A stretch of DNA of 64,000 nt, taken from NCBI GenBank assembly GCA_905233445.1, contig CAJOEP010000002.1, positions 23,108 through 87,107 of the forward strand, given 5' to 3'. The notes beneath the pieces are model-generated. The model saw nothing but the letters and a program-made list of their open reading frames with translations, was not told where the DNA came from and did no database searches. A program made the position numbers and the translations under genes. The first letter of the stretch is position 1. Every line of letters starts with the position of its first letter. This document shows positions 12,656 through 30,190 of this stretch, piece by piece. The stretch is from an uncultured Bacteroidales bacterium. Lineage in GTDB: Bacteria; Bacteroidota; Bacteroidia; Bacteroidales; F082.

Positions 12656-13519
12656 ATGAAAACAAGCAGCTATCTCCAAATCAATCTGTCCGACTGGCAG
12701 CAGGTAGGCGAAGGCGGCAACGGAAAGACATATGTCAATCCCGAGGCTCCCGGCGAAATCCTCAAAGTGAACAAAGAACGTCTGAACACTTTGGAGGCGG
12801 TCAAGCGCGAGTACGACACATCCAAGGCCGTGGCGAATCTGGGTGTTTCCGTCCCTCAGATCTATAAGATTGTGCGCGTTGGAGACGCTTATGCCACCCT
12901 CTCCCAGCTTATCAAAGGCAAGAAATCGCTCTCGCGTATATGCCACGACGAGCCGGAACGCACGGAAGAGATGGCCAGGCTATTGTGCCAAAAGGGCAAG
13001 GAACTCTTCGCCACACCTTGCAATACGGTATTCTTCCCCAACAGGAAAGAGCAGGCGCTTCGTGCTATCGAAAAGATAACTTTTGTGAGCAAGAAGAACA
13101 AAAAGACTATCCGAGCCTTCATTGAAACCATCCCGGAGAGCACCAACTGTGTGCATGGCGACTTCCAGACTGGCAACATCATCCAGGCTGGAGAGGACTA
13201 CTATTGGATTGACTTGGATCGATTTGCATACGGAGACCCAATGTTCGACATCGGTCACCTGTTCATGATTTGTAAAATATACGCCCCCATGAAACAAGTG
13301 CAGGACATCTTCCATATGACACAGGAGCAGTTCCATCGGTTTTGGGACGCCTTTGCCAAGGAATACACAGCCCAGGAAGACCATGCCGAATTCGACATTC
13401 TGGCCGGCAAATTCGCCGCCGTCGATGTGGTTCTCCGTACGGTATTACAAACGCCGACATTCGTTGAGAAACTCTTCTTCGGAATATATGTACGTAAACT
13501 TGTAAAGAATTATTTTTAA
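12656..13519 (+). CDS. APH/choline-kinase-like phosphotransferase (paralogue 1)
   Basis: Catalytic loop HGDFQTGN and metal-binding WIDLDRF. Paralogous to 13525 and 20184. Confidence 0.8.
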   Translation: MKTSSYLQINLSDWQQVGEGGNGKTYVNPEAPGEILKVNKERLNTLEAVKREYDTSKAVANLGVSVPQIYKIVRVGDAYATLSQLIKGKKSLSRICHDEPERTEEMARLLCQKGKELFATPCNTVFFPNRKEQALRAIEKITFVSKKNKKTIRAFIETIPESTNCVHGDFQTGNIIQAGEDYYWIDLDRFAYGDPMFDIGHLFMICKIYAPMKQVQDIFHMTQEQFHRFWDAFAKEYTAQEDHAEFDILAGKFAAVDVVLRTVLQTPTFVEKLFFGIYVRKLVKNYF

Positions 13520-13524
13520 ACACC

Positions 13525-14376
13525 ATGAACACATACGAAACCATCGATTTGAACGAGTACGTTCGCACAGGCGAAGGCGGAACAGCCATCACCTACACCC
13601 ACAAGAGCCGCAACACGCTGGCCAAGCTCTACAATCCCGGCTTTGAGGCCGATAGGGCATTGGCGGAATTCCTCACCGCCCGCACCGTCTTCGAGATGGG
13701 CATCCCGACACCTGAACCCTACAGACTGGTGACCGATGGAGAGCGTTTTGGCGCCGAATACGAGCTCATCAGGAACAAACGCTCTTTTGCACGCATCATC
13801 TCAGAAGAGCCCGAGCGTTTGGAGGAAATCTCCCTGACCTTTGCCCAATTCACCCGTGAGCTACACACACGGAAAGCCGACACCGCCCGTCTCCATTCCT
13901 ACAAACAGACCCTCACCCGTTTCTATCAGGAAAAGGATCTTGTCCCGGAAGAATATAAACGTCGCGCCTTGGCTTTTATGGAGAGGGTGCCGGAAGCCGA
14001 CACCTGCCTCCATGGTGACACCCAGATAGGAAACATCATCACCAACGGCGACCGCACGCTGTGGATCGACGTGGGCGAGTTCAGCTACGGCGTTCCCGAA
14101 TGGGATATAGCCATTCTTTGGACGATGGCTCACAATATGAAGGCCGACCGCTCAGTCAACCTTTTCCACATTACTCCGGAAACCTTTAACAAGCACTGGA
14201 ATATCTTCTTCCCCGCCTATCTGGGAACTACGGATCCGGAGGCACTTGAAGCATATACCAAGCGCCTCTTCCCCTTCTATGCCGCCAAGGTCCCGTATGT
14301 CTTTGATATGGCTTACCACACCTCACTTCCGGCTGAAGCCTTGGGAAGAATCATTAATATGTTGCCTAATGTGTAA
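13525..14376 (+). CDS. APH/choline-kinase-like phosphotransferase (paralogue 2)
   Basis: HGDTQIGN, WIDVGEF, and MGIPTPEP shared with 20184. Confidence 0.8.
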   Translation: MNTYETIDLNEYVRTGEGGTAITYTHKSRNTLAKLYNPGFEADRALAEFLTARTVFEMGIPTPEPYRLVTDGERFGAEYELIRNKRSFARIISEEPERLEEISLTFAQFTRELHTRKADTARLHSYKQTLTRFYQEKDLVPEEYKRRALAFMERVPEADTCLHGDTQIGNIITNGDRTLWIDVGEFSYGVPEWDIAILWTMAHNMKADRSVNLFHITPETFNKHWNIFFPAYLGTTDPEALEAYTKRLFPFYAAKVPYVFDMAYHTSLPAEALGRIINMLPNV

Positions 14377-15265
14377 GATTCCGATTCTCGTCATGACACT
14401 CCTTGCATCCATCAACGTTTTTGCGCAGCAGTTCATTCCCGTAGAAGGGATTGTCAACGCGCGTGACCTTGGCGGATATGAGGTTCAGGGAGGATTTAGC
14501 GTCAAAACCGGAAAGCTCATCAGAGCCGCCCATCTTGCCGATGCCACGGATGCCGACATCGCCTATCTCGAAAGCATCCCCGTAGCATTGGTGGTGGATT
14601 TCCGGACGGACATGGAAATGAAGGGCAAAGCCGACAGGGACATTCCCGGTGCCAAGTATGTGCACCTTCCCGTCGATGTCAGCGGCAGCTCAAGAATCAC
14701 CGATGAGGAAAAGACCAGTCTTGCGGGTGGACAGAAGTTCGATGTCCGCGATATCGTCGTCTATGCCGCCTTCAACGAAAAGGCCCAGGCCTTGGTGGAG
14801 GCAATGTATCCCACGCTTTTCTTCAACCCTGATTGTCAGCGGCAGTTTGCCAGCTTCTTCCGTATGGTTCTGGAAACGGAAGATGGAGCCGTCATCTATC
14901 ACTGCAGCCAGGGAAAAGACCGCACAGGTGTGGCATCGGCGCTTCTGCTGGCAGCCCTCGGCGCCGACAGGGAGACCATTGTGGCCGATTTCGATGCCAC
15001 CAACCGCGTCTATGAGAAGGATGTAAAGGAATACAGCCAGCGCGTCATTGCCAATGGCGGCACAGAGAAGGAATTAGCCGTCGTCAAAGCCTTTCTGGGC
15101 TGCAACACAGAGAATTTCATCAAAGCCCTGGATGCCGTTGAAGAACAATACGGCTCTCTGGAAAACTATCTGAAAGGCCCGATAGGACTGTCGGAAGCGG
15201 ACCTCGAGACATTGAGAGGCCGTTACCTTATAGAAACGAATTCATCCAATCGCAAAAACCAATAA
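14369..15265 (+). CDS. Secreted protein-tyrosine phosphatase (CX5R, Y_phosphatase3-like)
   Basis: The ATG at 14369 overlaps the upstream stop. Signal peptide MCKIPILVMTLLASINVFAQQ. Active site HCSQGKDRTG. Confidence 0.8.
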   Translation: MCKIPILVMTLLASINVFAQQFIPVEGIVNARDLGGYEVQGGFSVKTGKLIRAAHLADATDADIAYLESIPVALVVDFRTDMEMKGKADRDIPGAKYVHLPVDVSGSSRITDEEKTSLAGGQKFDVRDIVVYAAFNEKAQALVEAMYPTLFFNPDCQRQFASFFRMVLETEDGAVIYHCSQGKDRTGVASALLLAALGADRETIVADFDATNRVYEKDVKEYSQRVIANGGTEKELAVVKAFLGCNTENFIKALDAVEEQYGSLENYLKGPIGLSEADLETLRGRYLIETNSSNRKNQ

Positions 15266-15268
15266 GCT

Positions 15269-15715
15269 ATGGCAAACAAACCCTTGAATACCGCTATTCT
15301 GGACCGCGCCATCATCTTCGCGGTCCGCGCCCACACCGGCACCGAGCGCCGTGGCAAGGGCTTCCCCTATATCGTCCACCCCATGGAGGCCGTGGAGATT
15401 GTCGCCACCATGACCAAAGGCATGAGTGAGGAGGAGAGCTGGCACACCCGCAAGCAGGCCGCCATCGACCGCCTGGCCCGCGCCTCGCACGACGCCAAAA
15501 TCGTTGCCTTGGGCGACAAACTCTCCAACATGCGGGCCATCGCCCGCGACTATGCCGAGATAGGCGACAAACTCTGGAGCCGCTTCCACGCCAAAGACCC
15601 CAAGGACCACGCCTGGCACTACCGCGGCTTGGCCGCCTCGCTCAGCGAGCTCAGCGACACCTTCGCCTACAAAGAGTTCGTAGCACTCATCAACCAAGTG
15701 TTCGGAAAGGAATAA
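15269..15715 (+). CDS. SpoT/Mesh1-like HD-domain paralogue lacking the HD motif (probable pseudoenzyme)
   Basis: Collinear with 21014-21589, except that about 45 residues containing LHDTVED are replaced by a single K (VATMT-K-GMSEEESWH). The gene is very GC-rich. Confidence 0.75.
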   Translation: MANKPLNTAILDRAIIFAVRAHTGTERRGKGFPYIVHPMEAVEIVATMTKGMSEEESWHTRKQAAIDRLARASHDAKIVALGDKLSNMRAIARDYAEIGDKLWSRFHAKDPKDHAWHYRGLAASLSELSDTFAYKEFVALINQVFGKE

Positions 15716-15727
15716 AAAAATAAAGAT

Positions 15728-17362
15728 ATGAAGAAACTTTTCATGGTGCTCGCCGCCACCCTCATCTGCGGCGCCAGCCTGCTCACCTCCTGCAGCAAGG
15801 AGGAGCCGGCCGCCAATAGCACCGAGCCCGACCGCAAGGTGCTCCTCGTCATCCTCGACGGCTGGGGCATAGGCGACCAAGGCGAGGGCGACGTCATCGC
15901 GAATACTCCCACACCTTATATCGACTACCTCAACGCCACCTATCCTCACTCACAGCTTCAGGCTTCGGGCGAATATGTGGGTCTGCCCGACGGACAAATG
16001 GGCAACTCCGAGACCGGACACCTCAACATCGGCGCCGGACGCGTTGTTTATCAGGATCTGGTGATGATAAACCACGCCTGTGACGACAACTCCATCTTGC
16101 AAAACCCTGAAATCGTGTCGGCTTACAGCTATGCACAATCCACCGGCAAGAGCCTTCACCTCATGGGCTTGACATCCGACGGCGGCGTCCACTCTTCTAT
16201 CAACCACCTCTTTAAGCTCATCGATATCGCCGCACAGTATAACATTGAGAACTGCTACGTGCACTGCTTCATGGACGGTCGCGACACCGACCCTATGTCG
16301 GGCAAAGGCTTCGTCATCGACCTACAGCAGCACATGGCGGAGGCAGGCACAGGCGTTGTGGCAACTGTCATCGGACGTTACTACGCCATGGACCGCGACA
16401 ACAACTGGGACCGTATCAAGCTGGGTTACGACCTGCTCGTACATGGCCAAGGTCGTGAGGTGACGGACATGGTGGAAGGCATACAGTCGTGCTACGACTC
16501 GCACACACCTGAACACAAAAACACCGACGAGTTTATGGAACCGCTCGTCAACAGCAACGTCGACGGACGTATCAAGGATGGCGACGTGGTCATCTTCTTC
16601 AACTTCCGCAGCGACCGTGCCAAAGAAATGACCATAGCGCTCACTCAGCATGATATTCCGGAACATGACATGCAGACCATTCCAAATCTCCAGTATTACT
16701 GCATGACACCATACGACGACTCTTTCACAGGCATACACGTCATCTTCCCTAAAGGAAATGTTGAGAATACCCTTGGCGAATACATAGCAAGCAAAGGCTT
16801 GAAGCAGCTGCATGCTGCCGAAACCGAGAAATATGCCCACGTGACATCATTCATCAACGGCGGGCGAGAAGAGCCGTTCGAGGGAGAAGACCGCATCCTG
16901 GTGAACTCTCCAGCGGTCGCAACCTACGACCTCCAGCCTGAGATGTCGGCCTACGAGTTGAAAGACCGTCTCATCGAGGCGCTCAACACCAACCGCTACG
17001 ACTGGATTGTGGTGAATTTCGCCAACGCCGACATGGTGGGACACACAGGGTTTTACTCCGCCATCCAAACGGCGGTGCAGACTATCGACCAGTGTCTGAG
17101 CGAGCTGGTGGAGGCAGCCAAAGCGAAAGGCTATGAAGTCGTCATCACTGCCGACCACGGCAATGCCGACCATGCCATCAACGACGACGGCACACCCAAC
17201 ACCGCCCACTCCACCAACCCTGTTCCTTTTATCTACGTGACAGAGAACCTTAACGCGAGGGTGAACAATGGTGTCCTGGCCGACGTGGCTCCTACCATAC
17301 TACACATCATGGGACTTGGACAACCACAAGAGATGACCGGACAGTGCCTAATTAATGAATAG
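15728..17362 (+). CDS. gpmI: 2,3-bisphosphoglycerate-independent phosphoglycerate mutase with an N-terminal lipoprotein-type signal in the long ORF
   Basis: LILDGWGIG, the [10 protein letters not shown] catalytic Ser, and ADHGNAD. The first 35 aa, [26 protein letters not shown], form a lipobox signal. An alternative in-frame GTG lies at about 15838. Confidence 0.9.
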
Positions 17363-17385
17363 ACAATAACAATTGAAAAAATATT

Positions 17386-17712
17386 ATGATTGAGACGAAG
17401 ATATATATAGGTCTTAACGATGCCACCACCAAGCAGCAGAAGCATAACACCGACACATATGTCGATATCATGAAATACGTCTGTAAAAGCTATCATGTGC
17501 CGTTCGCATTTTCCATCAGCGAAGGCGGATATCTCCACGAGAATGGCGATTACACTCAAGAGAGAATTCTCCTCATATCGCTGATGGATGCCGATAAGCA
17601 GATAGCCGAAGCCATCGCAAAAGACCTATGCGCTTTCTTCCATCAGGAAAGTGTGATGGTAACGGAGAGTGTGGTTAATGTCAGTTTTATTAAGGATAAT
17701 CTTAATATTTAG
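17386..17712 (+). CDS. Hypothetical small protein
   Basis: 108-aa ORF, last gene of the plus-strand operon. No motif recognised. Confidence 0.5.
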   Translation: MIETKIYIGLNDATTKQQKHNTDTYVDIMKYVCKSYHVPFAFSISEGGYLHENGDYTQERILLISLMDADKQIAEAIAKDLCAFFHQESVMVTESVVNVSFIKDNLNI

Positions 17713-17723
17713 CACTAGACGCT

Positions 17724-18026
17724 TTATTCTATCTCAAAAAGATTAAGGAATCCGGTCATCATAAACACCTGACGGATGCTGTTGCTGATGTTTCTTACAA
17801 TCACCTTGCCGCCTTTGGCTGCTGATGCTTTGCGCAAAGCGAGAAACAGACGCAATCCTGAGCTGGAGATGTAGACAAGCTCCGTGCAGTCGAGTACCAC
17901 CATGCCGTTTGCGGCATCATTCAGCTGCTCGAAACTTGGTGCCACTTCTGTTGATGCAGGTGTGTCGAGACGACCTGCCAGATGGGCGATCGTCATGTCG
18001 TTTGTTTTTTCAATGTTAATAGTCAT
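17724..18026 (-). CDS. STAS-domain anti-sigma-factor antagonist-like protein (RsbV/SpoIIAA family)
   Basis: 100 aa. Carries LDCTELVYISSSGLRLF with the conserved phosphorylatable Ser context. Confidence 0.85.
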   Translation of the reverse strand: MTINIEKTNDMTIAHLAGRLDTPASTEVAPSFEQLNDAANGMVVLDCTELVYISSSGLRLFLALRKASAAKGGKVIVRNISNSIRQVFMMTGFLNLFEIE

Positions 18027-18030
18027 CGCG

Positions 18031-20187
18031 TTAAATATTTTTTGTCATTTTTAATACATTTTTATTATCGAGGCGCTGATAGTGCACCTCATCCATCAGT
18101 TTACGCACCATGAAGATGCCCAAGCCTCCAATAGGGCGCTCGTCGGCCGAGAGGGTGATGTCGGCTTCAGGAGCTGCGGTAGGGTCGAAAGGCACGCCGC
18201 TGTCGGTTATAATGAATTCTAACGAGTGCTCCATCACTATGGCATCAATATCCACCAGTCCGTCGGTTCCTTTAGGATAGGCATAGAGGATGACGTTGGT
18301 GACAGCCTCCTCCAGCGCCAGGTTGAGGTTCATAGCAAGAGTCTCATCCAGCTTTTTCTCTTCGGCTATCTTCTCAATAAACTCGGCAAGCAGTGAAATC
18401 TGCTTTATGTCGTTGTGAAGCTCCAGATGACGCTCCTGTTGTGCCGGAACGACATGAGCCAGATAGTGGATAAAGAGCATAGTGAGGTCGTCGCTCTGCG
18501 GAGCCTCGCCAACAAATTGAGACACCTGTTGTTTGATGTTTTCCAGATGATCTGATGAGCGTTTTCTTCCGTGAAGAGCCTTCTCTATCCTATCCTCGCC
18601 AAACTGTTCCTTTGTTGCGTTTTCAGCTTCCGAGAGACCGTCGGTATAGAGGAAAAGCGCGTCGTCGTAAAGGAAAGGCGTCTCTTGTTCGATGAAATCC
18701 ACCCCTTTCATGATGCCTATCGGGAGGTTTGGCTCCACTGGCAGCACCCTGATGGCATCAGTGAGTATCATTGGCGGGTTATGACCTGCGTTGCAGTAGC
18801 GCAGTTGACCTGCGCTCAAGTCAAGGACACCACAGAAAAATGTGACAAACATGCTTCTCTCATTGGCCTCCGACATAGTGTTATTCATCGAGGTGACGAT
18901 TTTTGCAGGGCTGTCCTCATGAGCCGACATTGCACGAAACAGGCTACGGGTAACCGCCATTACCAGAGAGGCAGGGATACCTTTACCCGAGACGTCGCCT
19001 ATGCAGAAAAACAGCTTCTCGTCGCGGATAAAGAAGTCATACAGGTCACCACCCACTTCCTTCGCGGGAATGATGGATGCAGCGAGGTCCAAGTCTTTCC
19101 GTTCCGGGAAAGGCGGAAAAGTCTTTGGAATCATCGACATCTGAATCTCCCGAGCAATATGCAGCTCGTTTTCAATTCGTTCTTTTTGCTCGTTGATGCG
19201 CTGGTATTTGGCACGATTTTTGGCAACAACCCTAAGAATGATAATAATCATCGACAAACCCAACAGTTGCAGCAATTGCACATTCATTGCCATTCGGCGG
19301 ACGCCGCTGTAAAGATCCTTTTCGGGAAGCACAATCGACAGCGACCAGCCTGTTCGCTCCACAGGTGCAAAATACACGTGGTTGATTTCTCCTTGATATT
19401 TGACCGGCATCTCGCCATATTGCCCGGCCAACATGGCTTTGTTGACACGGTCGAGGGCTTTATAGTCATCTGATTCCAAGGCAATCTGGTCTATGGTGGC
19501 TTTCATAGTCAAGTTTTCGACAGTGCATACCATTATATTTCCGTTACGGCTAACAACCATGTTGAAAGCGTTTGGATAAACCTTCATTCTTTCTATGAGT
19601 TCCGCTAGCCACTCCAACGAGATGTCGGCAGTCACGATGGCGGCTATCTTACCGTTTCTGTCTTTTACCGGCATGGAAAATGTCGTCATCAGGATGTCGC
19701 CTCCATTTTCGTCGAAATAAGGCTCCGACCAGTAGCCTTCGTCCATCTCAATGGGTTTGGTAAACCATTCCGACGATGGATAGTCATATTCTTCGGTGGC
19801 CAGTGAAAGCATCTTTATTTTGCCAGTCTCATCGTCTCTCATGGCGTATGGGGCATACAAAGGATATTTCTCGCTGTAGCCTGGAACCAGCGCCATGGTC
19901 GATCCAACCACGACAGGATTCTCGCTCACTATTCTTTGGGGAATACGTTTCAAACTGTCGGGAGTTTCCAGGCACCATTCCGCAACCCATATACTGTTGC
20001 GAACGGCAGCTTCGGCCTGGTTCACAACATCCATGATTTTGTTTTCGGCACTTTTCAGCTCACTCGCAGCGCGGAGCGAGGCCTCTTTTTTGATTTCCCT
20101 TTGGGAATAGTGATATTGGATGATAAATGTGGCCTCTAACGTTAAAACAGCCACAATCACCAACAACAATCCGGCTTTGAGTTTCAT
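18031..20187 (-). CDS. Membrane sensor: Cache-like periplasmic domain + PP2C/SpoIIE phosphatase + RsbW-like HATPase_c kinase fusion
   Basis: TM helix, about 270 aa extracytoplasmic, then a second TM helix. PP2C motifs GGDLYDF, GDVSGKG, TDGLSEA and SDDLT. C-terminal N-box EEAVTNVILYAY, DSGVPFD and GGLGIFMVRKL. Confidence 0.85.
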   Translation of the reverse strand: MKLKAGLLLVIVAVLTLEATFIIQYHYSQREIKKEASLRAASELKSAENKIMDVVNQAEAAVRNSIWVAEWCLETPDSLKRIPQRIVSENPVVVGSTMALVPGYSEKYPLYAPYAMRDDETGKIKMLSLATEEYDYPSSEWFTKPIEMDEGYWSEPYFDENGGDILMTTFSMPVKDRNGKIAAIVTADISLEWLAELIERMKVYPNAFNMVVSRNGNIMVCTVENLTMKATIDQIALESDDYKALDRVNKAMLAGQYGEMPVKYQGEINHVYFAPVERTGWSLSIVLPEKDLYSGVRRMAMNVQLLQLLGLSMIIIILRVVAKNRAKYQRINEQKERIENELHIAREIQMSMIPKTFPPFPERKDLDLAASIIPAKEVGGDLYDFFIRDEKLFFCIGDVSGKGIPASLVMAVTRSLFRAMSAHEDSPAKIVTSMNNTMSEANERSMFVTFFCGVLDLSAGQLRYCNAGHNPPMILTDAIRVLPVEPNLPIGIMKGVDFIEQETPFLYDDALFLYTDGLSEAENATKEQFGEDRIEKALHGRKRSSDHLENIKQQVSQFVGEAPQSDDLTMLFIHYLAHVVPAQQERHLELHNDIKQISLLAEFIEKIAEEKKLDETLAMNLNLALEEAVTNVILYAYPKGTDGLVDIDAIVMEHSLEFIITDSGVPFDPTAAPEADITLSADERPIGGLGIFMVRKLMDEVHYQRLDNKNVLKMTKNI

Positions 20188-21014
20188 AATATAGATGTTA
20201 ATGCTGCGCGAAATATTGGCATAGGTTGTTTGACGTCTCTTTCAATGATTAAGGTCTTGAGTCCGGCGTATGGTCGGATTATCTCCTCAATTTCCTTCAG
20301 CGGGATACCTTTTCCGAAATATGCCGGCGCAAAATACTCCCAGAATTTTAAGGCAAGAGCCTTCGACATGTGGAAGGTCTCTTGGATGAATGCCTCGTCG
20401 TCAAGGCAGCAGCAGAGATAAGGCATACCCATATCGAAGAGGTGGTTGCCCCAGCAGAAATCGCCTAAGTCGATGAAATAACGCTTGTCGCCGACAAAGA
20501 TGACATTGCTGAATTGGAGGTCGCCGTGGATGGCTGTGTCCTCGTCAGGCGTATCGGCTATAAAACGTGCCAACTTATCCTTTTCAACCGTCGTGAAGAA
20601 TGGATTCTCCTGCAGCAGGCGATAGTAACGGTCCTTTACGTTTTCAAACTGCTTGGTATCAACATGAGTAGCATGCAGTTTGAGGCACATCTGAGCAAAT
20701 TCTTCGGCAAACTGTGCCACCTTTTCGGGCTCGTCGGCTGTGGCGCGCGAATACGATTTCTTGCCCAATATACGCTTAAAACGGATGCCGTAGCGGCCGT
20801 CTTCGGTCACCACATATTCGCCTGGTTCCGGCGTCGGGATGCCCATTTCATAGACTTTCCGGGCGAGGTTCATCTCATCCAAAGGCTGTTGGATCTTGCC
20901 CGAAAAATATAGTTTCAACATCACCGACGGGTCGGTCTTGTGGTCGTAGCTCTCACCGTTGGCGCCGCCTCCGGAAAGAACATAGTCGTTGAGAGATATC
21001 TTGATAGCTTCCAT
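20184..21014 (-). CDS. APH/choline-kinase-like phosphotransferase (paralogue 3)
   Basis: IHGDLQFSN, FIDLGDF and MGIPTPEP. Shows 4-nt ATGA and 1-nt TAATG overlaps with its neighbours. Confidence 0.8.
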   Translation of the reverse strand: MEAIKISLNDYVLSGGGANGESYDHKTDPSVMLKLYFSGKIQQPLDEMNLARKVYEMGIPTPEPGEYVVTEDGRYGIRFKRILGKKSYSRATADEPEKVAQFAEEFAQMCLKLHATHVDTKQFENVKDRYYRLLQENPFFTTVEKDKLARFIADTPDEDTAIHGDLQFSNVIFVGDKRYFIDLGDFCWGNHLFDMGMPYLCCCLDDEAFIQETFHMSKALALKFWEYFAPAYFGKGIPLKEIEEIIRPYAGLKTLIIERDVKQPMPIFRAALTSIL

Positions 21015-21589
21015 TATTTGAAAACTTTATTGATTAACGATTCGAATTCTTTATAAGCCACGGTGTCTTCCAACTCGCGTAATGCGTCGGCGAGTCCGCG
21101 GTAGTGCCATTCGTGTTCTTTGGGATCGTTGGTGTGAAAGCGGTTCCAGAGTGCATCTCCTATCTCATCATAGTCGCGGGCGATGGCACGCATGTTGGAG
21201 AGTTTGTCGCCCAAAGCCACCATCTTGGCATCGTGGCTGGCTTCTGAAAGGCGGTCGATGGCAGCCTGCTTGCGCTGGTGCCAGCTGTCTTCTTCGGTCA
21301 TGCCTTCAGGCATCACATCGCTTTCATCAGCCACCAGAGAGGCTATGCGCTCGCCAAACTCAGCCCTGAGTTGCTCCACCGTCACCTCGGTATCCTCCAC
21401 AGTGTCGTGCAATGCGGCTGCGGCAAGCAGTTCCTGGTCGGGAGTCATTGTTGCCACAATCTCCACGGCTTCCAAAGGATGCACAATGTAAGGATAGCCC
21501 TTGCCTCTACGTTCGGTATTGGAATGAGCCTTGACTGCAAAAACTATTGCGCGATCCAGAAGTTCGGTATTCAGATATTTGTTTGCCAT
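21014..21589 (-). CDS. HD-domain (p)ppGpp-hydrolase-like protein (small alarmone hydrolase type)
   Basis: YIVHPLEAVEIV and AAALHDTVEDT (the HD dyad). About 190 aa with no synthetase domain. Confidence 0.8.
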   Translation of the reverse strand: MANKYLNTELLDRAIVFAVKAHSNTERRGKGYPYIVHPLEAVEIVATMTPDQELLAAAALHDTVEDTEVTVEQLRAEFGERIASLVADESDVMPEGMTEEDSWHQRKQAAIDRLSEASHDAKMVALGDKLSNMRAIARDYDEIGDALWNRFHTNDPKEHEWHYRGLADALRELEDTVAYKEFESLINKVFK

Positions 21590-21593
21590 AATT

Positions 21594-22682
21594 TTACTTA
21601 TTCATAAATGGATAGTCACGAGCCTGTTCCATCAGGAAGTCGGCCATGAAAGCGTTATTTTCCGATGGGCCGTTCAAGGTGTCGAACATCAGTTTCAAGC
21701 CGGTCTTTCCGCCTCCGTTTTTGAGGATGAAAGCCGTGCAGAGGTTCTGTGGTGCCACCGACGATGACAGGATGTCCAGGTCGGTTATGCCCATCTGGAA
21801 ACAGGCAATCTGATAGGCGGCATCCGAAAAATCTTTCACCATCTTCTCAACATCGCCTAAGGTCTTGAAACCCATGGCTTTGAACAATGGGAGGAATGAC
21901 GACAGATCCACCTCCTGTATCTCAGCCTGATTGATTGATGCGATGCGGTGCATCAAAGCGTCGAAAGGTCCTATCTGGAGGTAGCTCTTGAACGAGTCGC
22001 CGTCGAGCAGCACCTCGTCGAGGTTGCCCGATGCCACCAGCGACTGCACCCTGCGCCTGTAGTCGTTAAGCTCCCTGCGGATGCGGCTGAACTCGTCGTC
22101 AACGAGCTCCAGCATACCTGCCAAACGGCTGAGGTTGCGCTTATACACCTTAGGAATCTCCACTCCGCTCTTGTAGCCAGTGTCATGGTTCATGTTCGAC
22201 CAAGCGTGCTGCAGTATGGTGCGCATCTGTACCTCAAAGCGTATCTTGTTGAACTCAGGGCGTCCTGGCATCGTATATGACGACTCGGGAATGCGGCAGA
22301 TATGATGCAATGAGAGGTATCCGAAGCTGTCAATATCGTGAATTTTACGCTTGTCGATGGAGTTCTCCCAGTCGATGTCGAAGAGGTGCTCGAGTATGGT
22401 TGCCACCTTATCCACATCGTCGGTGTAAAAAGTGATGACGCGCACGCCTACCAGGTCGGTGATATCGTATATGTCGCGATATTTTTCTCCCTTGAGCTTC
22501 AGCTTTCCCGCAAGCGATTTCTCGGCCTTCACGCGTTGCTCCACAGCCGCCACTATGATTCCCGTCTTGTCGAAAAAGTCTTTCAGCAATGCCGGAATCA
22601 CCTCCACCATCTTATTATAAACAGGCAGCAGGTTACGGTACTGGTCAAGCAGCTCTTCGTTATGTGATAATTTATTTTCCAT
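21594..22682 (-). CDS. RelA/SpoT-domain nucleotide pyrophosphokinase (small alarmone synthetase type) with about 150-aa C-terminal extension
   Basis: DLVGVRVITFY, GYLSLHHI and FEVQMRTILQHAWSNMNHDTGYK match the synthetase signature (EVQIRT..QH.W...H...YK). Confidence 0.85.
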   Translation of the reverse strand: MENKLSHNEELLDQYRNLLPVYNKMVEVIPALLKDFFDKTGIIVAAVEQRVKAEKSLAGKLKLKGEKYRDIYDITDLVGVRVITFYTDDVDKVATILEHLFDIDWENSIDKRKIHDIDSFGYLSLHHICRIPESSYTMPGRPEFNKIRFEVQMRTILQHAWSNMNHDTGYKSGVEIPKVYKRNLSRLAGMLELVDDEFSRIRRELNDYRRRVQSLVASGNLDEVLLDGDSFKSYLQIGPFDALMHRIASINQAEIQEVDLSSFLPLFKAMGFKTLGDVEKMVKDFSDAAYQIACFQMGITDLDILSSSVAPQNLCTAFILKNGGGKTGLKLMFDTLNGPSENNAFMADFLMEQARDYPFMNK

Positions 22683-23295
22683 AGTTACGGACGTTTTCAG
22701 CGATAAACGATGCCACTTTTTCTGGCTCCATGCCTGTCACATCAAAAACGAAGTTATAGTTGCGGGCGTCGTAGCGTGAGGTCTCGGCAACGGTCTGCAC
22801 GAAGTTGTCTCTTGCCTGGTCAACGCTATCAACCACCTTGGCGGCTTCTTTTGTGCTGAGATTCTGCTTCTTTGCGATACGTGCAATGCGGGCATCACGT
22901 TTTGCAATGATGAGGATGTGCAATGCGTTCGGGTCATCGCGGAAAATATGGAATCCGGCGCGGCCTACTATTATACAGCTTTCCTTTTCTGCCAATTCGC
23001 GCAGCAGGCGTTCTTCAGCGTAATAAACGCTTTTTGGCGTAGGGTCTGCGATGGCACCTGTAGTGTATCCGGCTGCTCCGAACTGCTGGTAGAAGCTGCA
23101 GAACTCGCTCCACCAGTTGGTCTTCTGCGCCTTGATTTTGTCCATCTCCTCAAGGGTGCAACCAAAACGCTTAGCCACAGCTTCAAGCACGGTGCGGCCA
23201 TATACCTTGATACCAAGTTTCTCTCCCAACAGGCGTGCAATCTCGCCGCCTCCACTGCCGCATTCGCGGTTGATAGTGATGATAATCTTGTTCAT
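22672..23295 (-). CDS. Cytidylate-kinase-like family P-loop protein
   Basis: MNKIIITINRECGSGGGEIA. Paralogue at 45111. Overlaps the downstream SAS gene by 11 nt. Confidence 0.7.
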   Translation of the reverse strand: MNKIIITINRECGSGGGEIARLLGEKLGIKVYGRTVLEAVAKRFGCTLEEMDKIKAQKTNWWSEFCSFYQQFGAAGYTTGAIADPTPKSVYYAEERLLRELAEKESCIIVGRAGFHIFRDDPNALHILIIAKRDARIARIAKKQNLSTKEAAKVVDSVDQARDNFVQTVAETSRYDARNYNFVFDVTGMEPEKVASFIAENVRNYGK

Positions 23296-23511
23296 TTTGC
23301 CCTGTTTATTTTTTTACAAAAATAAAAAATCTAATGCATACTTTTTTAATATACACAAATTGTCGAATGTTTTTCACAAACAATCGAATTAACAAATTGA
23401 TAATAAATAGACATTAGACAATAAGTGGTGCCTCAAAAACACAAAAAGTCGAATGATTTTCCACTTAAACTTACAAATAATTGCTTATCTTTGCACCCAA
23501 AATATATTGCA

Positions 23512-24438
23512 ATGGGCAACACTTTTTTCTTCACTTGGGAAGTCTCCTTGATGGAGTGGCTGCAGTCGCACATCGGCAGCACAGGAATATCGTTCATTTC
23601 AAACTTCTCCCTGTTAGGAGAAGAGCTACCTCTAGTCCTTATCGTAGGCTTCTTTTACTGGAGCTACAACAAGCAAATGGGCCGCTCCATTGGACTTATC
23701 GCCATCATGGGACTTATCTGGAACACCATGATTAAAAATATCGTCCTTCGCCGCCGGCCGTATTTCGACCACAAGAACATCAAGATTCTGCGTGTTGTCG
23801 ATCTGTCGGCCGACATCTACGACATTGCGGCCCAAGGCTACTCCTGCCCCAGCGGTCATTCGACCAATGTGGTTACGGTGTTCGGCTCGCTGGCTCTCAA
23901 CCTCCGCAAACGCTGGATGACGATTCTCGCCATCATTATACCGCTGCTCACGGGCTTTTCACGAGTGGTGGTGGGCGCGCACTATCCCACCGATGTACTG
24001 GGAGGTTGGCTGCTTGGATTGCTCAGTGTGATTATCGTTTACACTCTTCAAAAACGGATTAAAAGCACCCTCCTGCTCTACGGCATACTTTTAGCCACAA
24101 CCATTCCGGGTTTCTTCTACTGCAACAGTGCCGATTATTTCGCCGCGACAGGTCTCTTGATCGGTTTCATGGGCGCCACTCTCCTTGACGACTATTGCGT
24201 CCATTTTGAAAGCACTCGCAAGCCACTGTTGATGGCTGCCCGTTTGCTTGGAGGATTGGTGGTCTATATTGTTGTGAGCAAGCTGCTCAAGATGCCATTC
24301 TCAAAGGAATTTCTATCAGATAGCGGCACTGCCGCCATGATGGTGCGCTGCGCCCGCTACGCCATCGTCGCCTTCATCGATTTCGGCTTGTATCCAATGT
24401 TGTTCAAGTTTGAAAAAAATTCTAAACGAAATGACTGA
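23512..24438 (+). CDS. PAP2-family membrane phosphatase
   Basis: Motifs KNIVLRRRP, PSGHS and SRVVVGAHYPTDV. ATG at 23512. Confidence 0.85.
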   Translation: MGNTFFFTWEVSLMEWLQSHIGSTGISFISNFSLLGEELPLVLIVGFFYWSYNKQMGRSIGLIAIMGLIWNTMIKNIVLRRRPYFDHKNIKILRVVDLSADIYDIAAQGYSCPSGHSTNVVTVFGSLALNLRKRWMTILAIIIPLLTGFSRVVVGAHYPTDVLGGWLLGLLSVIIVYTLQKRIKSTLLLYGILLATTIPGFFYCNSADYFAATGLLIGFMGATLLDDYCVHFESTRKPLLMAARLLGGLVVYIVVSKLLKMPFSKEFLSDSGTAAMMVRCARYAIVAFIDFGLYPMLFKFEKNSKRND

Positions 24439-24666: not shown

Positions 24667-24709
24667 TAAAAAATATTTCATATCTTTGCAGCCAGAAAAC
24701 ATTATCACC

Positions 24710-26143
24710 ATGGATAGAAATTTGTTTATCGGACGTGAATACGAAATCCGCCAACTCGAAAAATACCGCGATTCAAAAGAATCCGAATTCGTAATAGTTT
24801 ATGGCCGTCGCCGTGTCGGAAAAACATTCCTTATCAAGGAATTCTTCGACGACACCTACGACTTTCACGTCACCGGGCTTTACAAAAAGCCCAAACAGAT
24901 GCAGCTCAAAAATTTCTATCTGGCATTGCAGGAATACGGTTCCAACCTCAAAAAAGTGCCGTCCGATTGGCTCGAAGCCTTCGAAGAACTCAAAAAACTC
25001 CTTAAAGGCATCAAAAAAAATCGCAAAAAGATAGTCTTCATTGACGAGCTCCCTTGGCTCGACACACGTCAAAGCGAGTTTCTTGGAGCATTTGAAGCAT
25101 TTTGGAACGGCTGGGGCGCTCAGCAAAACGATATCATGCTGGTTGTGTGCGGCTCCGCCACCACCTGGATCACCAAAAAAATCCTCTCCAACAAAGGCGG
25201 TCTGTTCAATCGCGCCGCACGTCGCCTGTTCCTCATGCAATTCACACTTCAGGAAACCGAAAAATACCTCATTTCACGTGGCATCAACTGGAACCGCTAC
25301 GACATCGTTGAGTGCTACATGACGATGGGCGGCATACCTTATTATTTAAAGCTTCTCGACAACGAGCTACCCTATCTCACCAATATCGACAACATATTCT
25401 TCAAGCGCAACGGCTCCCTTTGGGACGAATTCGACCATCTCTACGAAACACTCTTCGGCAACTCAAAGGCATATCTCAAAATCATCGATGCCCTTGCAAC
25501 AAAGAAATCAGGTCTCACCCGTTTAGAGATTATCAATGAAACCAAGTTGGAAGACAACGGACTCCTCACCGAGATGCTTAAAAACCTCAAAGACAGCCAG
25601 TTCGTAAGAGCCTACAACACCTTTGGTTACGGTGAGAAAAACGTCGTCTATCAATTGGCCGATTACTTCACCCTGTTCTACCTTCGTTTCATGAAAGGCA
25701 AACAAAACCCCGACGAACATTTCTGGACTCATTTTCTCGACAATCCGGCAAAGAACAGTTGGGCTGGCCAAACCTTCGAGCAAGTCTGCAAAGATCACAT
25801 TTCTCAAATCAAAAAAGCCATAGGCATCAATGCGGTGCTCACCGACATCTCATCCTGGCAAGGAAGTTCCGATAGTGGCAAAGCACAAATCGACCTCATC
25901 ATCGACCGTCGCGACCACGTCATCAACATATGCGAAATCAAATTCTCCATTAGCGATTATGTCATCGACAAAGACTACGAAGCAAAGCTTCGCCAAAAAA
26001 TTCAAGTCTTCCGCGAAGCCACCAATTCTCGCAAAGCCCTGCAGCTGGTCATGATCACCACCTACGGAGTCAAACCAAACGCCCACAGTGGCATCATGCA
26101 ATCACAAGTCAAAATGGACGACCTCTTTGCAAGTGCAAATTAA
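24710..26143 (+). CDS. AAA-type ATPase (archaeal-ATPase/DUF234-like family)
   Basis: Walker A YGRRRVGKT and Walker B IVFIDELPW. ATG at 24710 (the ORF-track start is TTG). Confidence 0.75.
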   Translation: MDRNLFIGREYEIRQLEKYRDSKESEFVIVYGRRRVGKTFLIKEFFDDTYDFHVTGLYKKPKQMQLKNFYLALQEYGSNLKKVPSDWLEAFEELKKLLKGIKKNRKKIVFIDELPWLDTRQSEFLGAFEAFWNGWGAQQNDIMLVVCGSATTWITKKILSNKGGLFNRAARRLFLMQFTLQETEKYLISRGINWNRYDIVECYMTMGGIPYYLKLLDNELPYLTNIDNIFFKRNGSLWDEFDHLYETLFGNSKAYLKIIDALATKKSGLTRLEIINETKLEDNGLLTEMLKNLKDSQFVRAYNTFGYGEKNVVYQLADYFTLFYLRFMKGKQNPDEHFWTHFLDNPAKNSWAGQTFEQVCKDHISQIKKAIGINAVLTDISSWQGSSDSGKAQIDLIIDRRDHVINICEIKFSISDYVIDKDYEAKLRQKIQVFREATNSRKALQLVMITTYGVKPNAHSGIMQSQVKMDDLFASAN

Positions 26144-26158
26144 CCCAAAGATTCCCAC

Positions 26159-26196
26159 GATTCCGAAGATTCCCACACATAGTAATCTTCGGAATC
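26159..26196. terminator. 13-bp perfect-stem hairpin after the ATPase gene
   Basis: gattccgaagatt ... aatcttcggaatc. There is no clear U-tract. Confidence 0.45.
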
Positions 26197-26229
26197 CCTT
26201 TGTAGTCTAAAATCAAAAACATAAAAAAT

Positions 26230-26506
26230 ATGGCAAGCATTCAGGATATTCACGCTTTTGAAGAAAAAATTTACGACATCGTTCAGTATTATATCGATGA
26301 AAATTATGATGTTGAAGATGTCTTAGCTATTAGTATGTTGTGGACGAATCAACATGAAAGCTGACGCAAAAGAAGCAATAAAGATTGGGAAAACCACAGA
26401 GATTTATCCTCTAAAGGATTTGGTGCGTTTAGATGACGAAGGTCAAAAAGAGCCTGATGTTGATAGGATAAATGACATCGCTAACAGTTGGGTGTTTTTA
26501 GATTAA
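26230..26506 (+). pseudogene. Small gene split into two overlapping ORFs (44 aa and 50 aa) by a +1 shift
   Basis: MASIQDIHAFEEKIYDIVQYYIDENYDVEDVLAISMLWTNQHES* overlaps MKADAKEAIKIGKTTEIYPLKDLVRLDDEGQKEPDVDRINDIANSWVFLD* at 26354-26364. Confidence 0.35.
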
Positions 26507-26680
26507 TAGCGGTAATCATTTTATGCTTTGATTGCAGAAAAAAAGATAAAATAATATGATTTGGCTTTAAAAAAGTTATGTATTTTTGCAACTGATTTTT
26601 AAAGTAATATTAAGGACATAAGCAAATCCTATAATATTAACAACATAACAGTAATTGGGTGTTTATTGAATAAATGTAAG

Positions 26681-27964: not shown

Positions 27965-27970
27965 TACAAA

Positions 27971-27995
27971 GGCCCACCTTGCGATGGGCCTTTTT
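27971..27995. terminator. Hairpin plus T-run between convergent genes
   Basis: ggcccaccttgcgatgggcc followed by ttttt. Confidence 0.6.
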
Positions 27996-28001
27996 AATAT
28001 G

Positions 28002-28751: not shown

Positions 28752-28755
28752 AGGC

Positions 28756-29382: not shown

Positions 29383-29396
29383 ATCTCTATCTGGGC

Positions 29397-29625
29397 AAAA
29401 AAAAGCCCTCTGTTTTGATAAGAGGGCGCAATAGAGATTATCGGTATCAAGGCCTAGCAAAGCCTTCTTCAGTCAATAACCATACTATCCACGCCCTAAT
29501 TCTAGCGTGAATACCCTTAGATTTGGCTGAACTGAAGATTCGTTTACTTGCTAGTTTTGATACTCAGTCTGGTCAAGGATACTATTTTGTTTTACTCTTG
29601 CTCTATAATACCTTGTTAGGTTTTT
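29397..29625 (-). ncRNA. Candidate structured leader/sRNA ending in an intrinsic terminator just upstream of the restriction gene
   Basis: Minus-strand -7 box tatttttg (29633-29640). Nested stems at 29466-73/29531-38 and 29490-94/29505-09. Terminator gccctct-loop-agagggc plus U8 (29397-29427), 15 nt before the ATG. Confidence 0.4.
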
Positions 29626-29699
29626 ATCAATGCAAAAATACAAAATTTTAACATAAATTTCATTTTTATGCAAACTATGTTAAAAATTTTTTAACATTT

Positions 29700-29717
29700 C
29701 TTGCAAAATTTTGCAAG
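29700..29717. promoter_or_regulatory. Perfect 18-bp palindrome, candidate operator
   Basis: cttgcaaaattttgcaag. A second near-palindrome atgttaaaaattttttaacat lies at 29677-29697. Confidence 0.45.
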
Positions 29718-29825
29718 TTATGTTAACAAAATTTAACAATTAAATCATTGACAGATAAGGTTTTATGATGTAATTTTGCAAACAGGTAACAAATCATTAT
29801 TTAGTAACCTTTAAACGTCATAAAA

Positions 29826-30086: not shown

Positions 30087-30190
30087 AAAAGTCGACCGTA
30101 CCAAGCAATTACCCCAATGGGGAACCACGTACGGAATCGACCTTTTCAAATTGCAAAAATACAACATTTTTTTTGATTGTCAAGAACTTT

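Follow-up and report, generated by a model that had tools for sequence, protein, structure and literature searches.

In the rumen Bacteroidales DNA considered here, a stretch of 64,000 nucleotides referred to as the window, genes for a small alarmone synthetase (SAS) and a small alarmone hydrolase (SAH) lie in one string with a membrane sensor and a STAS protein of the partner-switching type. ORF and domain annotation of the window revealed no sigma or anti-sigma gene adjoining this cluster; the first-pass annotation had already remarked on the lack of a sigma factor.

Layout and components of the cluster

The six ORFs were found exactly where the first-pass annotation had placed them, and Pfam agreed with the domains it had assigned (Table 1). 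According to ORF coordinates, neighbouring genes overlap by 11 nt at the first junction, by 1 nt at the third and by 4 nt at the fourth, and are separated by 4 nt at the second and fifth. The only minus-strand match to TAnnTTTG between 17700 and 23450 was located inside an AT-rich leader of 130 nt; about 1.4 matches would be expected by chance in this span, and the box is suggestive only as promoter of the cluster. Terminator prediction gave no intrinsic terminator for the coding strand. Tight junctions, one candidate promoter box and the lack of predicted terminators on that strand support a probable operon structure.

Table 1. Coordinates of the cluster, its candidate promoter box and the convergent neighbouring operon (positions in the window)
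Feature	Coordinates	Strand	Evidence or remark
Cytidylate_kin2 (PF13189) protein, 207 aa	22672..23295	-	Pfam 150.9 bits
SAS, 362 aa	21594..22682	-	RelA_SpoT 62.7 bits
SAH, 191 aa	21014..21589	-	HD_4 77.1 bits
APH-fold kinase-like protein (TIGR02172-like), 276 aa	20184..21014	-	Pfam APH 47.3 bits
Membrane sensor, 718 aa	18031..20187	-	MCP-like_PDC_1/dCache_1; SpoIIE 162.9 bits; HATPase_c_2 92.7 bits
Single-domain STAS protein (anti-sigma-antagonist type), 100 aa	17724..18026	-	STAS 57.3 bits
Candidate Bacteroidetes-type -7 promoter box TATTTTTG, pattern TAnnTTTG	23317..23324	-	~25 nt upstream of first ATG
Convergent neighbouring operon with accessory-gene paralogues	12656..15715	+	domain matches
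Two APH/TIGR02172 kinases	12656-13519, 13525-14376	+	domain matches
Y_phosphatase3 with signal peptide	14369-15265	+	domain match
SAH paralogue without HD motif	15269-15715	+	60% identical overall to SAH

The SAS is composed of a RelQ/RelP-like catalytic domain (residues ~1-210) and a family-specific helical C-terminal domain (~212-362). Alignment with RelQ/RelP displayed all of the motifs RxK, DxxDxxGxR, GYxSxH, ExQxRT and HDxGYK, which were invariant in 67/67 orthologues; the catalytic residues, whose possible loss had been named as an objection to the first reading, are thus in place. The AF2 model (pLDDT 89.5) matched 5ded, 6fgk and 6ewz over the N-terminal domain with target-normalised TM scores of 0.8-0.88. 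The C-terminal domain of roughly 150 aa, modelled alone, reached a pLDDT of 93.6 and found no fold match in PDB or BFVD. The best solved relatives of the SAH were stand-alone small alarmone hydrolase-type HD proteins (7qoe, 7qoc and 4yf1), followed by MESH1, and its residues H37, H61-D62, E65-D66 and D128 were invariant in 53/53 orthologues. Pairing of the two enzymes is supported by their adjacency and by a SAS-HD_4 fusion protein (P0186).

The sensor displayed, in order, TM1, a periplasmic dCache domain, TM2, a PP2C phosphatase and an RsbW-type Ser kinase. Hydrophobic segments at residues 1-26 and 299-324 flank its Cache domain, which is therefore extracytoplasmic. Relatives in the PDB were 3lic for the Cache domain, Rv1364c (3ke6), RssB and SiaA for the PP2C domain, and RsbW (6m36) and SpoIIAB for the kinase domain. 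The PP2C aspartates D381, D384, D398, D516, D566 and D567 were kept in 64/64 homologous sequences, the kinase N-box and G-boxes in 62-63/64. The STAS protein scored 63.5 bits against TIGR00377 (cutoff 53.45). A phosphorylatable serine had been proposed for it, and this was borne out by alignment with SpoIIAA (1th8_B), in which Ser55 of ISSSGL falls at the phospho-acceptor position; this residue was kept in 49/49 orthologues. All catalytic motifs are complete and vary hardly at all among orthologues, and the enzymes of the cluster appear catalytically competent.

The first gene of the cluster had been described as encoding a cytidylate-kinase-like P-loop protein. Membership of the Cytidylate_kin2 family was retained; its status as a kinase was not, GSGGGE being found in place of the Walker A Lys-Ser/Thr. 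The protein scored 29 bits against the CMP-kinase equivalog, failing the cutoff of 102, and its closest solved structures (3fdi and 3hdt) are themselves uncharacterised, so that it is best placed in the uncharacterised PF13189 family and not taken as a demonstrable kinase. The APH-like protein reached 220.6 bits with TIGR02172, just below the cutoff of 228.2, and found no match in a PDB sequence search; K34, H163-G-D165, N170 and D182 were invariant in 64/64 sequences.

Conservation of the linkage in related loci

Linkage was counted in those related loci (n=78) that extend at least 5 kb to each side of the SAS gene, genes being considered near when on the same strand and within 7 kb. STAS and/or PP2C genes were near SAS in 70 of these 78 loci, which are not independent observations because many come from related rumen Bacteroidales. 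By SAS identity, such genes were near in 10/10 loci at ≥70%, 44/46 at 58-70%, 12/15 at 45-58% and 4/7 below 45%. The 367 kb of flanking DNA more than 7 kb from SAS contained no PP2C match and a single STAS match. The arrangement was not peculiar to this strain, conserved gene order being found outside it; among all related loci more than 20 different orders were encountered, with PP2C-STAS upstream or downstream of SAS depending on the locus and with a CK or antiporter gene sometimes inserted.

The linkage was kept at SAS identities of 35-42%, with altered sensor domains and the kinase fused or split. Loci of this distant group displayed SAS / HD_4 / STAS / 5TMR-LYT-SpoIIE-HATPase_c_2 (L087), SAS / STAS / SpoIIE / separate HATPase_c_2 (L096) or SAS / HD_4 / STAS (L084 and L090). 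A search starting from the sensor served as reciprocal test: each of the four sensor homologues checked (72-95% identical) had SAS-HD-APH on one side and STAS on the other; three were situated in unrelated housekeeping contexts and the fourth was the window's close relative. Three divergent proteins (P0122, P0271 and P0272; mutually 81-82% identical, from NCBI and JGI sources) carried a HATPase_c_2 domain fused to the N-terminus of a SAS 50% identical to that of the window, the fused kinase domain being 49% identical over 134 aa to sensor residues 585-718. These fusions stand alone, STAS and PP2C being absent nearby, and show a relationship between kinase domain and SAS, not the switch itself.

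The association was incomplete. A sensor-PP2C gene lay directly beside SAS with kinase and STAS absent nearby in L153 and L099, switch-module genes were absent near SAS in L095, L106, L110, L151 and L159, and in Firmicutes relatives the link was loose (L166) or absent (L168). Extra PP2C-kinase/STAS pairs without a SAS of their own (L029, L050 and L144) themselves adjoined a SAS cluster. Because the linkage was kept through rearrangement, divergence, fusion and the sensor-side check, the core was delimited as SAS, usually SAH, STAS, PP2C and the RsbW-type kinase. The functional tie between the synthetase/hydrolase pair and the Cache-PP2C-RsbW/STAS module, as read by the first-pass annotation, was upheld by conserved synteny, by the sensor-side check and by the kinase-SAS fusion.

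Its picture of a fixed six-gene system was not. Of the 78 loci, about 11 had the CK-like gene near SAS; its position within the cluster varies (unchanged in L229, the closest relative), and it is an occasional accessory. The APH-like gene was present in 52/56 loci at SAS identities of ≥58%, in 4/15 at 45-58% and in 0/7 below 45%, occurring only in relatives whose SAS is at least ~53% identical, and is a clade-specific accessory. Both were absent from distant relatives that keep SAS, STAS and PP2C/kinase. The convergent operon (Table 1) is possibly part of the same system: elsewhere, APH, Y_phosphatase3 and HD genes are co-directional within the SAS/STAS/PP2C cluster (e.g. L148, L158, L121, L123, L125, L128, L135 and L163). 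L229 lacks the four genes of the convergent operon. In its SAH paralogue, a 45-aa in-frame deletion has taken out H61-D62 and E65-D66. The window's second operon carries APH, PTP, dead HD and iPGM-like lipoprotein genes.

Alternative readings

The cluster could instead be a regulated toxin or growth-arrest (defence-like) module, with a toxSAS-type SAS producing toxic (p)ppApp or pyrophosphorylating tRNA, the SAH as type IV antitoxin, a C-terminal domain that autoinhibits as in CapRel, and a switch that triggers dormancy or abortive infection without tuning physiology. The direct succession of SAS and SAH mirrors FaRel/ATfaRel (PMC7229694). Relatives of the catalytic domain were found on viral or prophage contigs (n=56, 33-48% identical), among them one in a P2-like prophage, where it is an extra gene inserted amid those for baseplate and tail (L177), and one in a Firmicutes prophage (L170). 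They are equally long (350-366 aa), their C-terminal domain is divergent, and such a prophage-borne sister group leaves room for a toxin-like activity; yet the viral relatives lacked the SASc domain, and none had a STAS, PP2C, HATPase, HD or APH neighbour. PADLOC returned a weak match to the defence candidate PDC-S33, but this was limited to the catalytic core and equally weak for every relative tested. A low-GC methylase/ATPase island lies only 1.4 kb off in the window, whereas related clusters occupied varied housekeeping contexts (e.g. NusA-IF2-PdxA ... FtsA-FtsZ, DnaG, SusC/D and GlnA) and 80/80 genome-collection loci were single-locus matches, each from a different species representative. 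The SAH was missing in ~15% of loci, a loss incompatible with a lethal toxin; tRNA-targeting toxSAS are basic, while this SAS is acidic (pI 5.6; family median 5.2) and nearer to RelQ/RelP than to CapRel in sequence and fold. A toxin is thus considered unlikely.

It is quite improbable that the switch acts on an unlinked target (an anti-sigma/sigma factor or another enzyme), with SAS and SAH as co-transcribed passengers making no contact with STAS or kinase. Classical partner-switching modules do act in some species on proteins encoded elsewhere, contact is here deduced from genomics, and both SAS relatives without a module and module pairs without their own SAS exist; however, those pairs adjoin a SAS cluster, the HATPase_c_2-SAS fusions make little sense unless kinase domain and SAS are directly related in function, and the linkage has outlasted rearrangements, sensor-domain swaps and SAS divergence. 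A metabolic pathway, in which the RelA/SpoT-fold enzyme, HD hydrolase, APH-fold kinases, CK-like protein and PTP-like phosphatase would work one after another on a small molecule (such as a modified nucleotide or phosphorylated metabolite) and the sensor would only induce them, is highly improbable. It would account for the clustering of as many as seven enzymes of phosphoryl transfer (SAS, SAH, CK, Y_phosphatase3 and between one and three APH-fold kinases), for HD_4-Amidohydro_1 and Amidohydro-like/SASc fusions and for the second operon, but the APH, CK and PTP genes are not kept in distant relatives with SAS, STAS and PP2C, the closest relative is devoid of the second operon's accessory genes, and the catalytic motifs of SAS and SAH all agree with those of genuine alarmone enzymes. 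Moreover, partner switching is a post-translational device and not an inducer of transcription.

An alarmone synthetase as putative output

The cluster is best read as a probable partner-switching module with a small alarmone synthetase, not a sigma factor, as its output; gene neighbourhoods and one family of fusions suggest the coupling. A literature search found no published description of this architecture, in line with the novelty initially claimed for it. If true, bacteria would have a hitherto undescribed means of converting a chemical cue from outside the cell into a stress nucleotide.

A putative periplasmic ligand would be sensed by the dCache domain of the inner-membrane protein and would set the balance of PP2C against RsbW-type kinase on Ser55 of the STAS protein, whose phospho-state would in turn gate synthesis by deciding whether the SAS is active. 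The active enzyme would make a diffusible purine nucleotide pyrophosphorylated at the 3' position, (p)ppGpp being the likeliest product and (p)ppApp a possible one, and the co-encoded SAH would degrade this nucleotide, resetting the signal; the APH-like kinase, Y_phosphatase3 and Cytidylate_kin2 protein would be lineage-specific accessories. Protein contacts and the direction of regulation may follow either of two schemes. Most likely, dephospho-STAS would compete for the RsbW-type kinase domain, which would otherwise hold or inhibit the SAS much as an anti-sigma factor holds its sigma factor; alternatively, STAS may bind directly to the SAS or to its C-terminal domain, in the manner of SiaC with SiaD.

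Gene content and predicted activities of the cluster

Six open reading frames of the minus strand were recovered at exactly the positions that the first-pass annotation had given, and each of its domain assignments was confirmed by Pfam and NCBIfam (see the table). Distances between successive genes were, in order, -11, +4, -1, -4 and +4 nt. The sole TAnnTTTG sequence (Bacteroidetes-type -7 box) encountered on the minus strand between 17700 and 23450 preceded the first ATG by about 25 nt. A scan for sigma-70 promoters and terminators, which is uninformative for Bacteroidota, predicted no terminator on the coding strand, and no riboswitch or leader RNA was matched by Rfam in 17300-23700, even at E <= 1. 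At the gathering threshold, the single Rfam match of the window was a tRNA gene. The cluster was flanked by genes for a PAP2 protein and an AAA ATPase and by a convergent DUF3574-like gene. Neither the cluster, nor its flanks in the window, nor the related loci with annotated genes displayed a sigma or anti-sigma factor gene.

Positions of the cluster genes and of other features of the window
Feature	Position	Strand	Length
CK-like protein (Cytidylate_kin2)	22672-23295	minus	207 aa
SAS	21594-22682	minus	362 aa
HD protein (SAH)	21014-21589	minus	191 aa
APH-like protein	20184-21014	minus	276 aa
Sensor	18031-20187	minus	718 aa
STAS protein	17724-18026	minus	100 aa
NqrA subunit	6512-7876	minus	
FGE-sulfatase-domain protein	10956-12641	plus	
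Convergent operon	12656-17712	plus	
APH paralogue	13525-14376		
SAH paralogue	15269-15715	plus	
iPGM_N/Metalloenzyme protein	15728-17362	plus	
Low-GC stretch	24686-34000		
ATPase_2/DUF234 protein	24686-26143		
C-5 cytosine DNA methylase	26666-27964		
tRNA gene	37371-37454	minus	

The small alarmone synthetase (SAS) matched RelA_SpoT in Pfam (62.7 bits for a cutoff of 27) and, once aligned to RelQ and RelP, displayed all of the RxK, DxxDxxGxR, GYxSxH, ExQxRT and HxxxYK motifs. These catalytic motifs were invariant in the family alignment, which extended down to 29 % identity, and in 67 out of 67 orthologues. Its AF2 model (pLDDT 89.5) was matched by Foldseek over ~200 residues to the RelQ/RelP structures 5ded, 6fgk and 6ewz (E 1e-7 to 1e-10, target-normalised TM 0.8-0.88), CapRel being a far poorer structural match. 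Judged by its sequence, the protein looks like a competent alarmone synthetase. It is not of the single-domain type of ~200-250 aa, as its 362 aa include an extra C-terminal domain, and it missed the RelQ equivalog (NF053588, YjbM; 62.9 bits for a cutoff of 320). Modelled alone, residues 212-362 were mainly helical (pLDDT 93.6); this family-specific domain (SASc) found no fold match in PDB or BFVD and no PDB profile match (best E ~1). Among 8,000 candidates scored, ~7,600 reached E <= 1e-5, and clustering at 50 % identity gave 1,329 clusters with E <= 1e-30.

The small alarmone hydrolase (SAH) is a stand-alone HD_4 domain (77.1 bits). Its best PDB matches were the stand-alone hydrolases 7qoe, 7qoc and 4yf1, followed by MESH1, and its metal ligands (His, HD, ED and Asp) were invariant in 53 out of 53 orthologues. 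The pairing of synthetase and hydrolase was further supported by P0186, a related protein in which SAS and HD_4 are fused.

In the sensor, hydrophobic segments (residues 1-26 and 299-324) lie on either side of the periplasmic dCache domain. The PP2C domain (SpoIIE, 162.9 bits) displayed the metal-binding aspartates D381, D384, D398, D516, D566 and D567 in 64 out of 64 sequences, and its PDB relatives included Rv1364c (3ke6, the second-best match of the sensor) and SiaA (6k4e). The kinase domain (HATPase_c_2, 92.7 bits) matched RsbW (6m36) and SpoIIAB in PDB; its N, G1 and G2 boxes (N631, D662/G664 and G687-G690) were conserved in 62-63 of 64. The single-domain STAS protein (57.3 bits; TIGR00377 63.5 for a cutoff of 53.45) displayed Ser55, in a DSSG-like loop, aligned with the acceptor Ser of SpoIIAA and conserved in 49 out of 49 orthologues. 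By sequence criteria, the cluster is thus predicted to encode all three partner-switching activities, namely STAS, RsbW-type kinase and PP2C.

The APH-like protein matched Pfam APH (47.3 bits, cutoff 23.2) and remained just under the cutoff of TIGR02172 (220.6 for 228.2), for which an APH paralogue of the convergent operon scored 309.6. Its catalytic Lys, HGD...N loop and DxG/IDxGD metal site were conserved in 64 out of 64 sequences; no relative was found in PDB. The CK-like protein displayed GSGGGE where the Walker A motif GxxGxGK[ST] was expected, and hence no canonical Walker A lysine, and failed the CMP-kinase equivalog (TIGR02173, 29.2 bits for a cutoff of 102.1). Assignment as a cytidylate kinase was rejected on both counts. 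Its family, PF13189, is uncharacterised, and the solved relatives are exclusively unannotated structural-genomics entries.

Linkage of SAS with partner-switching genes

Related loci were gathered by a scan of species-representative genomes, which gave 80 loci from rumen Bacteroidales (58-81 % SAS identity; for all loci, identity refers to the SAS of the window), and by a search of metagenomes started from distant relatives, which gave 80 further loci. Genes were called with domain HMMs built from orthologues. Linkage was counted in loci offering at least 5 kb on either side of SAS, for STAS or PP2C genes that shared its strand and lay no more than 7 kb away. Such a gene was present in 10 out of 10 loci at 70 % identity or more, in 44 out of 46 at 58-70 %, in 12 out of 15 at 45-58 % and in four out of seven below 45 %. 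Control flanks located more than 7 kb from SAS (367 kb) yielded no PP2C match and a single STAS match. The reciprocal view was consistent: four out of four sensor homologues (72-95 % identical) were flanked by SAS-HD-APH and STAS, three of them in unrelated housekeeping neighbourhoods, while the closest, from L229 (the closest relative of the cluster), displayed the six-gene order of the window.

More than 20 gene orders were encountered. The commonest were SAS-HD-APH-PP2C/kinase-STAS and, in an intermediate clade, PP2C/kinase-STAS-SAS-APH-HD-Y_phosphatase3. In distant relatives (35-42 %), the sensor domain was swapped and the kinase was sometimes encoded by its own gene, yet the association was kept: locus L087 combined a 5TMR-LYT-SpoIIE-HATPase_c_2 protein with the SAS cluster, L096 displayed SpoIIE and a separate HATPase_c_2, and L084 and L090 displayed SAS-HD_4-STAS. 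Two loci (L153 and L099) had a sensor-PP2C gene beside SAS and no kinase or STAS gene nearby, which indicates that wiring varies between loci. The SAS family was present almost throughout a large rumen Bacteroidales clade. Linkage was loose or absent in relatives from Firmicutes, and tight coupling of SAS with the partner switch may be specific to Bacteroidota.

The distant clade presented further features. Directly upstream of SAS stood a conserved gene for a ~320-aa protein without Pfam match (L084, 6935-7969; L087, 7032-7988; L090, 6054-7022; also in L085, L086 and L104). Locus L087 also harbored, two genes upstream of its SAS-HD-STAS-PP2C/kinase cluster and on the same strand, a gene for a dCache-HAMP-GGDEF diguanylate cyclase (5457-7028), so that two second-messenger systems may be assembled in one locus. 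An HD_4-Amidohydro_1 fusion was also present in L084, and in the related protein P0188 an amidohydrolase-like region was joined to a SASc-like domain.

Accessory genes were more variable. APH was found in 52 out of 56 loci at 58 % identity or more, was common in the intermediate clade and was absent below 45 %. CK occurred in a minority of loci and at varying positions (before SAS, between SAS and HD, or after STAS), including directly upstream of a 37 %-identical SAS in L092. Y_phosphatase3 was a cluster member in the intermediate clade, where it lacked the signal peptide of the window copy; the idea that it partners the Cache domain in the periplasm was discarded, a signal peptide being restricted to the copy of the window and a few others. 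In ~20 loci, a Na_H_Exchanger and TrkA_C antiporter gene followed STAS or interrupted the cluster, and it may represent a further accessory or output. Its sites were after STAS, between APH and sensor, or between sensor and STAS (L065, 14828-16315; also L039, L049, L067, L073-L076 and L130).

The convergent operon of the window comprised genes for two TIGR02172/APH paralogues, a Y_phosphatase3 with signal peptide (MCKIPILVMTLLASINVFA), a SAH paralogue, an iPGM-like protein and the DUF3574-like protein. At the same position, L229 displayed the iPGM-like gene only; as both APH genes, Y_phosphatase3 and the SAH paralogue were missing there, this block appears to have been inserted or duplicated recently. 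The SAH paralogue was 60 % identical overall to the cluster SAH, and a 45-aa in-frame deletion removed its HD and ED motifs; it is likely a pseudo-enzyme or a decaying copy. At its N-terminus, the iPGM-like protein (of the type of cofactor-independent phosphoglycerate mutases) displayed a lipoprotein-like signal, which suggests a location outside the cytoplasm, an unexpected place for a glycolytic mutase. The NqrA subunit and FGE-sulfatase-domain genes, both upstream of the APH paralogues, represented an ordinary housekeeping context. Beyond the cluster, the low-GC stretch (0.32-0.38 in the intervals ~26-31 kb and 33-34 kb) carries the ATPase_2/DUF234 and C-5 cytosine DNA methylase genes and is probably a restriction-modification or defence island.

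Kinase-SAS fusions and possible functions

Three proteins from NCBI and JGI (P0122, P0271 and P0272; 521 aa, mutually 81-82 % identical) displayed a HATPase_c_2 domain fused N-terminally to a SAS with 50 % identity to that of the window. Over its whole length, the fused domain was 49 % identical to residues 585-718 of the sensor and thus belongs to the same kinase subfamily. The fusion genes stand alone, adjoining MFS transporter genes (loci L164 and L165). These fusions lead us to infer a functional interaction between the RsbW-type domain and SAS. They also speak against the reading that SAS and SAH are passengers, carried in the operon without contact to the switch. Alternatively, the clustered phosphoryl-transfer enzymes could form a metabolic pathway, against which stands the lack of conservation of the accessory enzymes.

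A toxin-like or defence role of the SAS-SAH pair deserves weight. Such pairs can be toxin-antitoxin systems, and a SAS beside a SAH is the layout of FaRel/ATfaRel (PMC7229694); moreover, the catalytic domain has a sister group carried by prophages, with proteins that are 33-48 % identical, of equal size and divergent at the C-terminus. These prophage and viral relatives, however, lacked both the SASc domain and the neighbour genes of the module, while the SAS/STAS/PP2C clade resided in housekeeping rather than mobile contexts. SAH adjoined SAS in most loci but was missing from ~15 % of them, where it may be dispensable, and the SAS is acidic; both observations lean against a toxin. PADLOC gave nothing for the other five proteins of the cluster and, for SAS, a weak match confined to the catalytic core (PDC-S33, 57 bits, profile positions 33-175 of 349), equally weak in all relatives tested; identification as a defence system by this model was consequently rejected. 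An antitoxin role of the SAS C-terminal domain is possible. Within the prophage sister group, members 40-48 % identical and 350-366 aa long were located in L177 (5878-6978) and L170 (5995-7047), the former as an extra gene in the baseplate and tail region of a P2-like prophage. These relatives, which had no good match to a named PADLOC system, are possibly single-gene defence or toxin SASs.

Among these readings, we rather favour control of SAS by the partner switch, the mechanism being inferred throughout. In the simplest model, SAS would occupy the classical place of the sigma factor, with dephosphorylated STAS as the competing partner. Direct contact between STAS and SAS, in the manner of SiaC-SiaD, would be equally compatible with the SAS-HD-STAS triads devoid of adjacent PP2C. 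The first-pass annotation had proposed that the phospho-state of STAS gates synthesis or turnover of a nucleotide messenger, or its further phosphorylation by the two kinase-like proteins; the core of this proposal, a switch tied to SAS, gained support from linkage and fusions, which its details did not. A fuller version of switch control appears unlikely: the RsbW-type domain would be an 'anti-synthetase factor', dephosphorylated STAS would release SAS when the Cache domain binds a rumen metabolite, and APH, the PTP-like phosphatase and the CK-like protein, in the lineages carrying them, would act on the alarmone to give another phosphorylated nucleotide, as yet undescribed. Under the 'anti-synthetase' reading, an extracytoplasmic ligand would directly gate alarmone synthesis.

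The known controls of small alarmone synthetases act through transcription and through nucleotides or RNA as allosteric effectors. If switch control holds true, a transmembrane ligand sensor wired by a phospho-switch to SAS and SAH would constitute a new input route to (p)ppGpp-type signalling. Partner-switching modules are common in Bacteroidota, for which we know of no target of the sigma-B type; they would thereby acquire a concrete output. Given the abundance of the family and its spread among rumen Bacteroidales, such control may affect the response of major fibre-degrading gut bacteria to their chemical environment. The fusion of kinase domain and SAS provides a directly testable hypothesis.

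Comparison with known systems

The cluster shares PP2C, GHKL Ser kinase and a single-domain STAS protein with the conserved phosphorylatable Ser with the RsbU/RsbP-RsbV-RsbW and SpoIIE-SpoIIAA-SpoIIAB modules of Bacillus, as indicated by Pfam, NCBIfam and PDB matches. In contrast to these, whose kinase has a sigma factor, usually encoded alongside, as its alternative partner, it has no sigma factor; kinase and phosphatase form a single membrane protein together with a Cache domain facing the periplasm, and the genes conserved alongside are those of an alarmone synthetase and its hydrolase. Chlamydia RsbU is likewise a membrane PP2C with an extracytoplasmic Cache-like ligand domain, feeding a STAS switch (RsbV/RsbW) in a bacterium not known to have a sigma-B-type factor; there, however, the kinase is a separate protein and no alarmone enzymes are known to take part.

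HsbR also combines PP2C and RsbW-like kinase in one protein. HsbR-HsbA-HsbD from Pseudomonas and SiaABCD from P. aeruginosa offer a precedent for control of a nucleotide second-messenger synthase by the phospho-state of a STAS-type or similar switch, the target being a diguanylate cyclase for both SiaC-SiaD (PMC8457831) and hsbAR (bioRxiv 10.1101/2024.11.25.625174). In these systems, a GGDEF enzyme makes c-di-GMP as the output and the input is a receiver domain or cytoplasmic signal, whereas the cluster displays a RelA/SpoT-fold pyrophosphokinase with paired hydrolase and a periplasmic Cache domain.

The cluster SAS and SAH agree with RelQ/RelP and with stand-alone SAHs in catalytic fold and in every motif. 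Whereas RelQ and RelP consist of a single domain (~210 aa) and are subject to transcriptional control and to pppGpp or RNA as allosteric effectors, the cluster SAS carries an extra 150-aa domain of no known fold and is genomically tied to a phospho-switch. It resembles CapRel, a fused toxin-antitoxin, in being a ~360-aa SAS with a putative regulatory domain at its C-terminus. It differs from toxSASs in being acidic, structurally nearer to RelQ than to CapRel, and linked to STAS/PP2C, a linkage we know for no described toxSAS.

Rv1364c from M. tuberculosis is a PAS-PP2C-RsbW-STAS multidomain regulator whose PP2C domain matches that of the sensor. Together with the STAS protein RsfA (Rv1365c), it is assigned to SigF control. 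We take Rv1364c, Rv1365c and Rv1366 to lie side by side, from their consecutive locus tags, and to our knowledge nobody has connected Rv1364c/RsfA with Rv1366. The latter is a predicted SAS reported to be catalytically inactive (PMC8622095). The trio may represent a second, independent and unnoticed parallel of the association between SAS and partner switch.

Partner switches with non-sigma outputs (c-di-GMP synthases among them) are already known, and the literature covers the SAS, SAH and toxSAS families well. In the literature searched, no paper was found to connect a SAS with a PP2C/RsbW/STAS module; what would be new is that the output of a partner switch is an alarmone synthetase.
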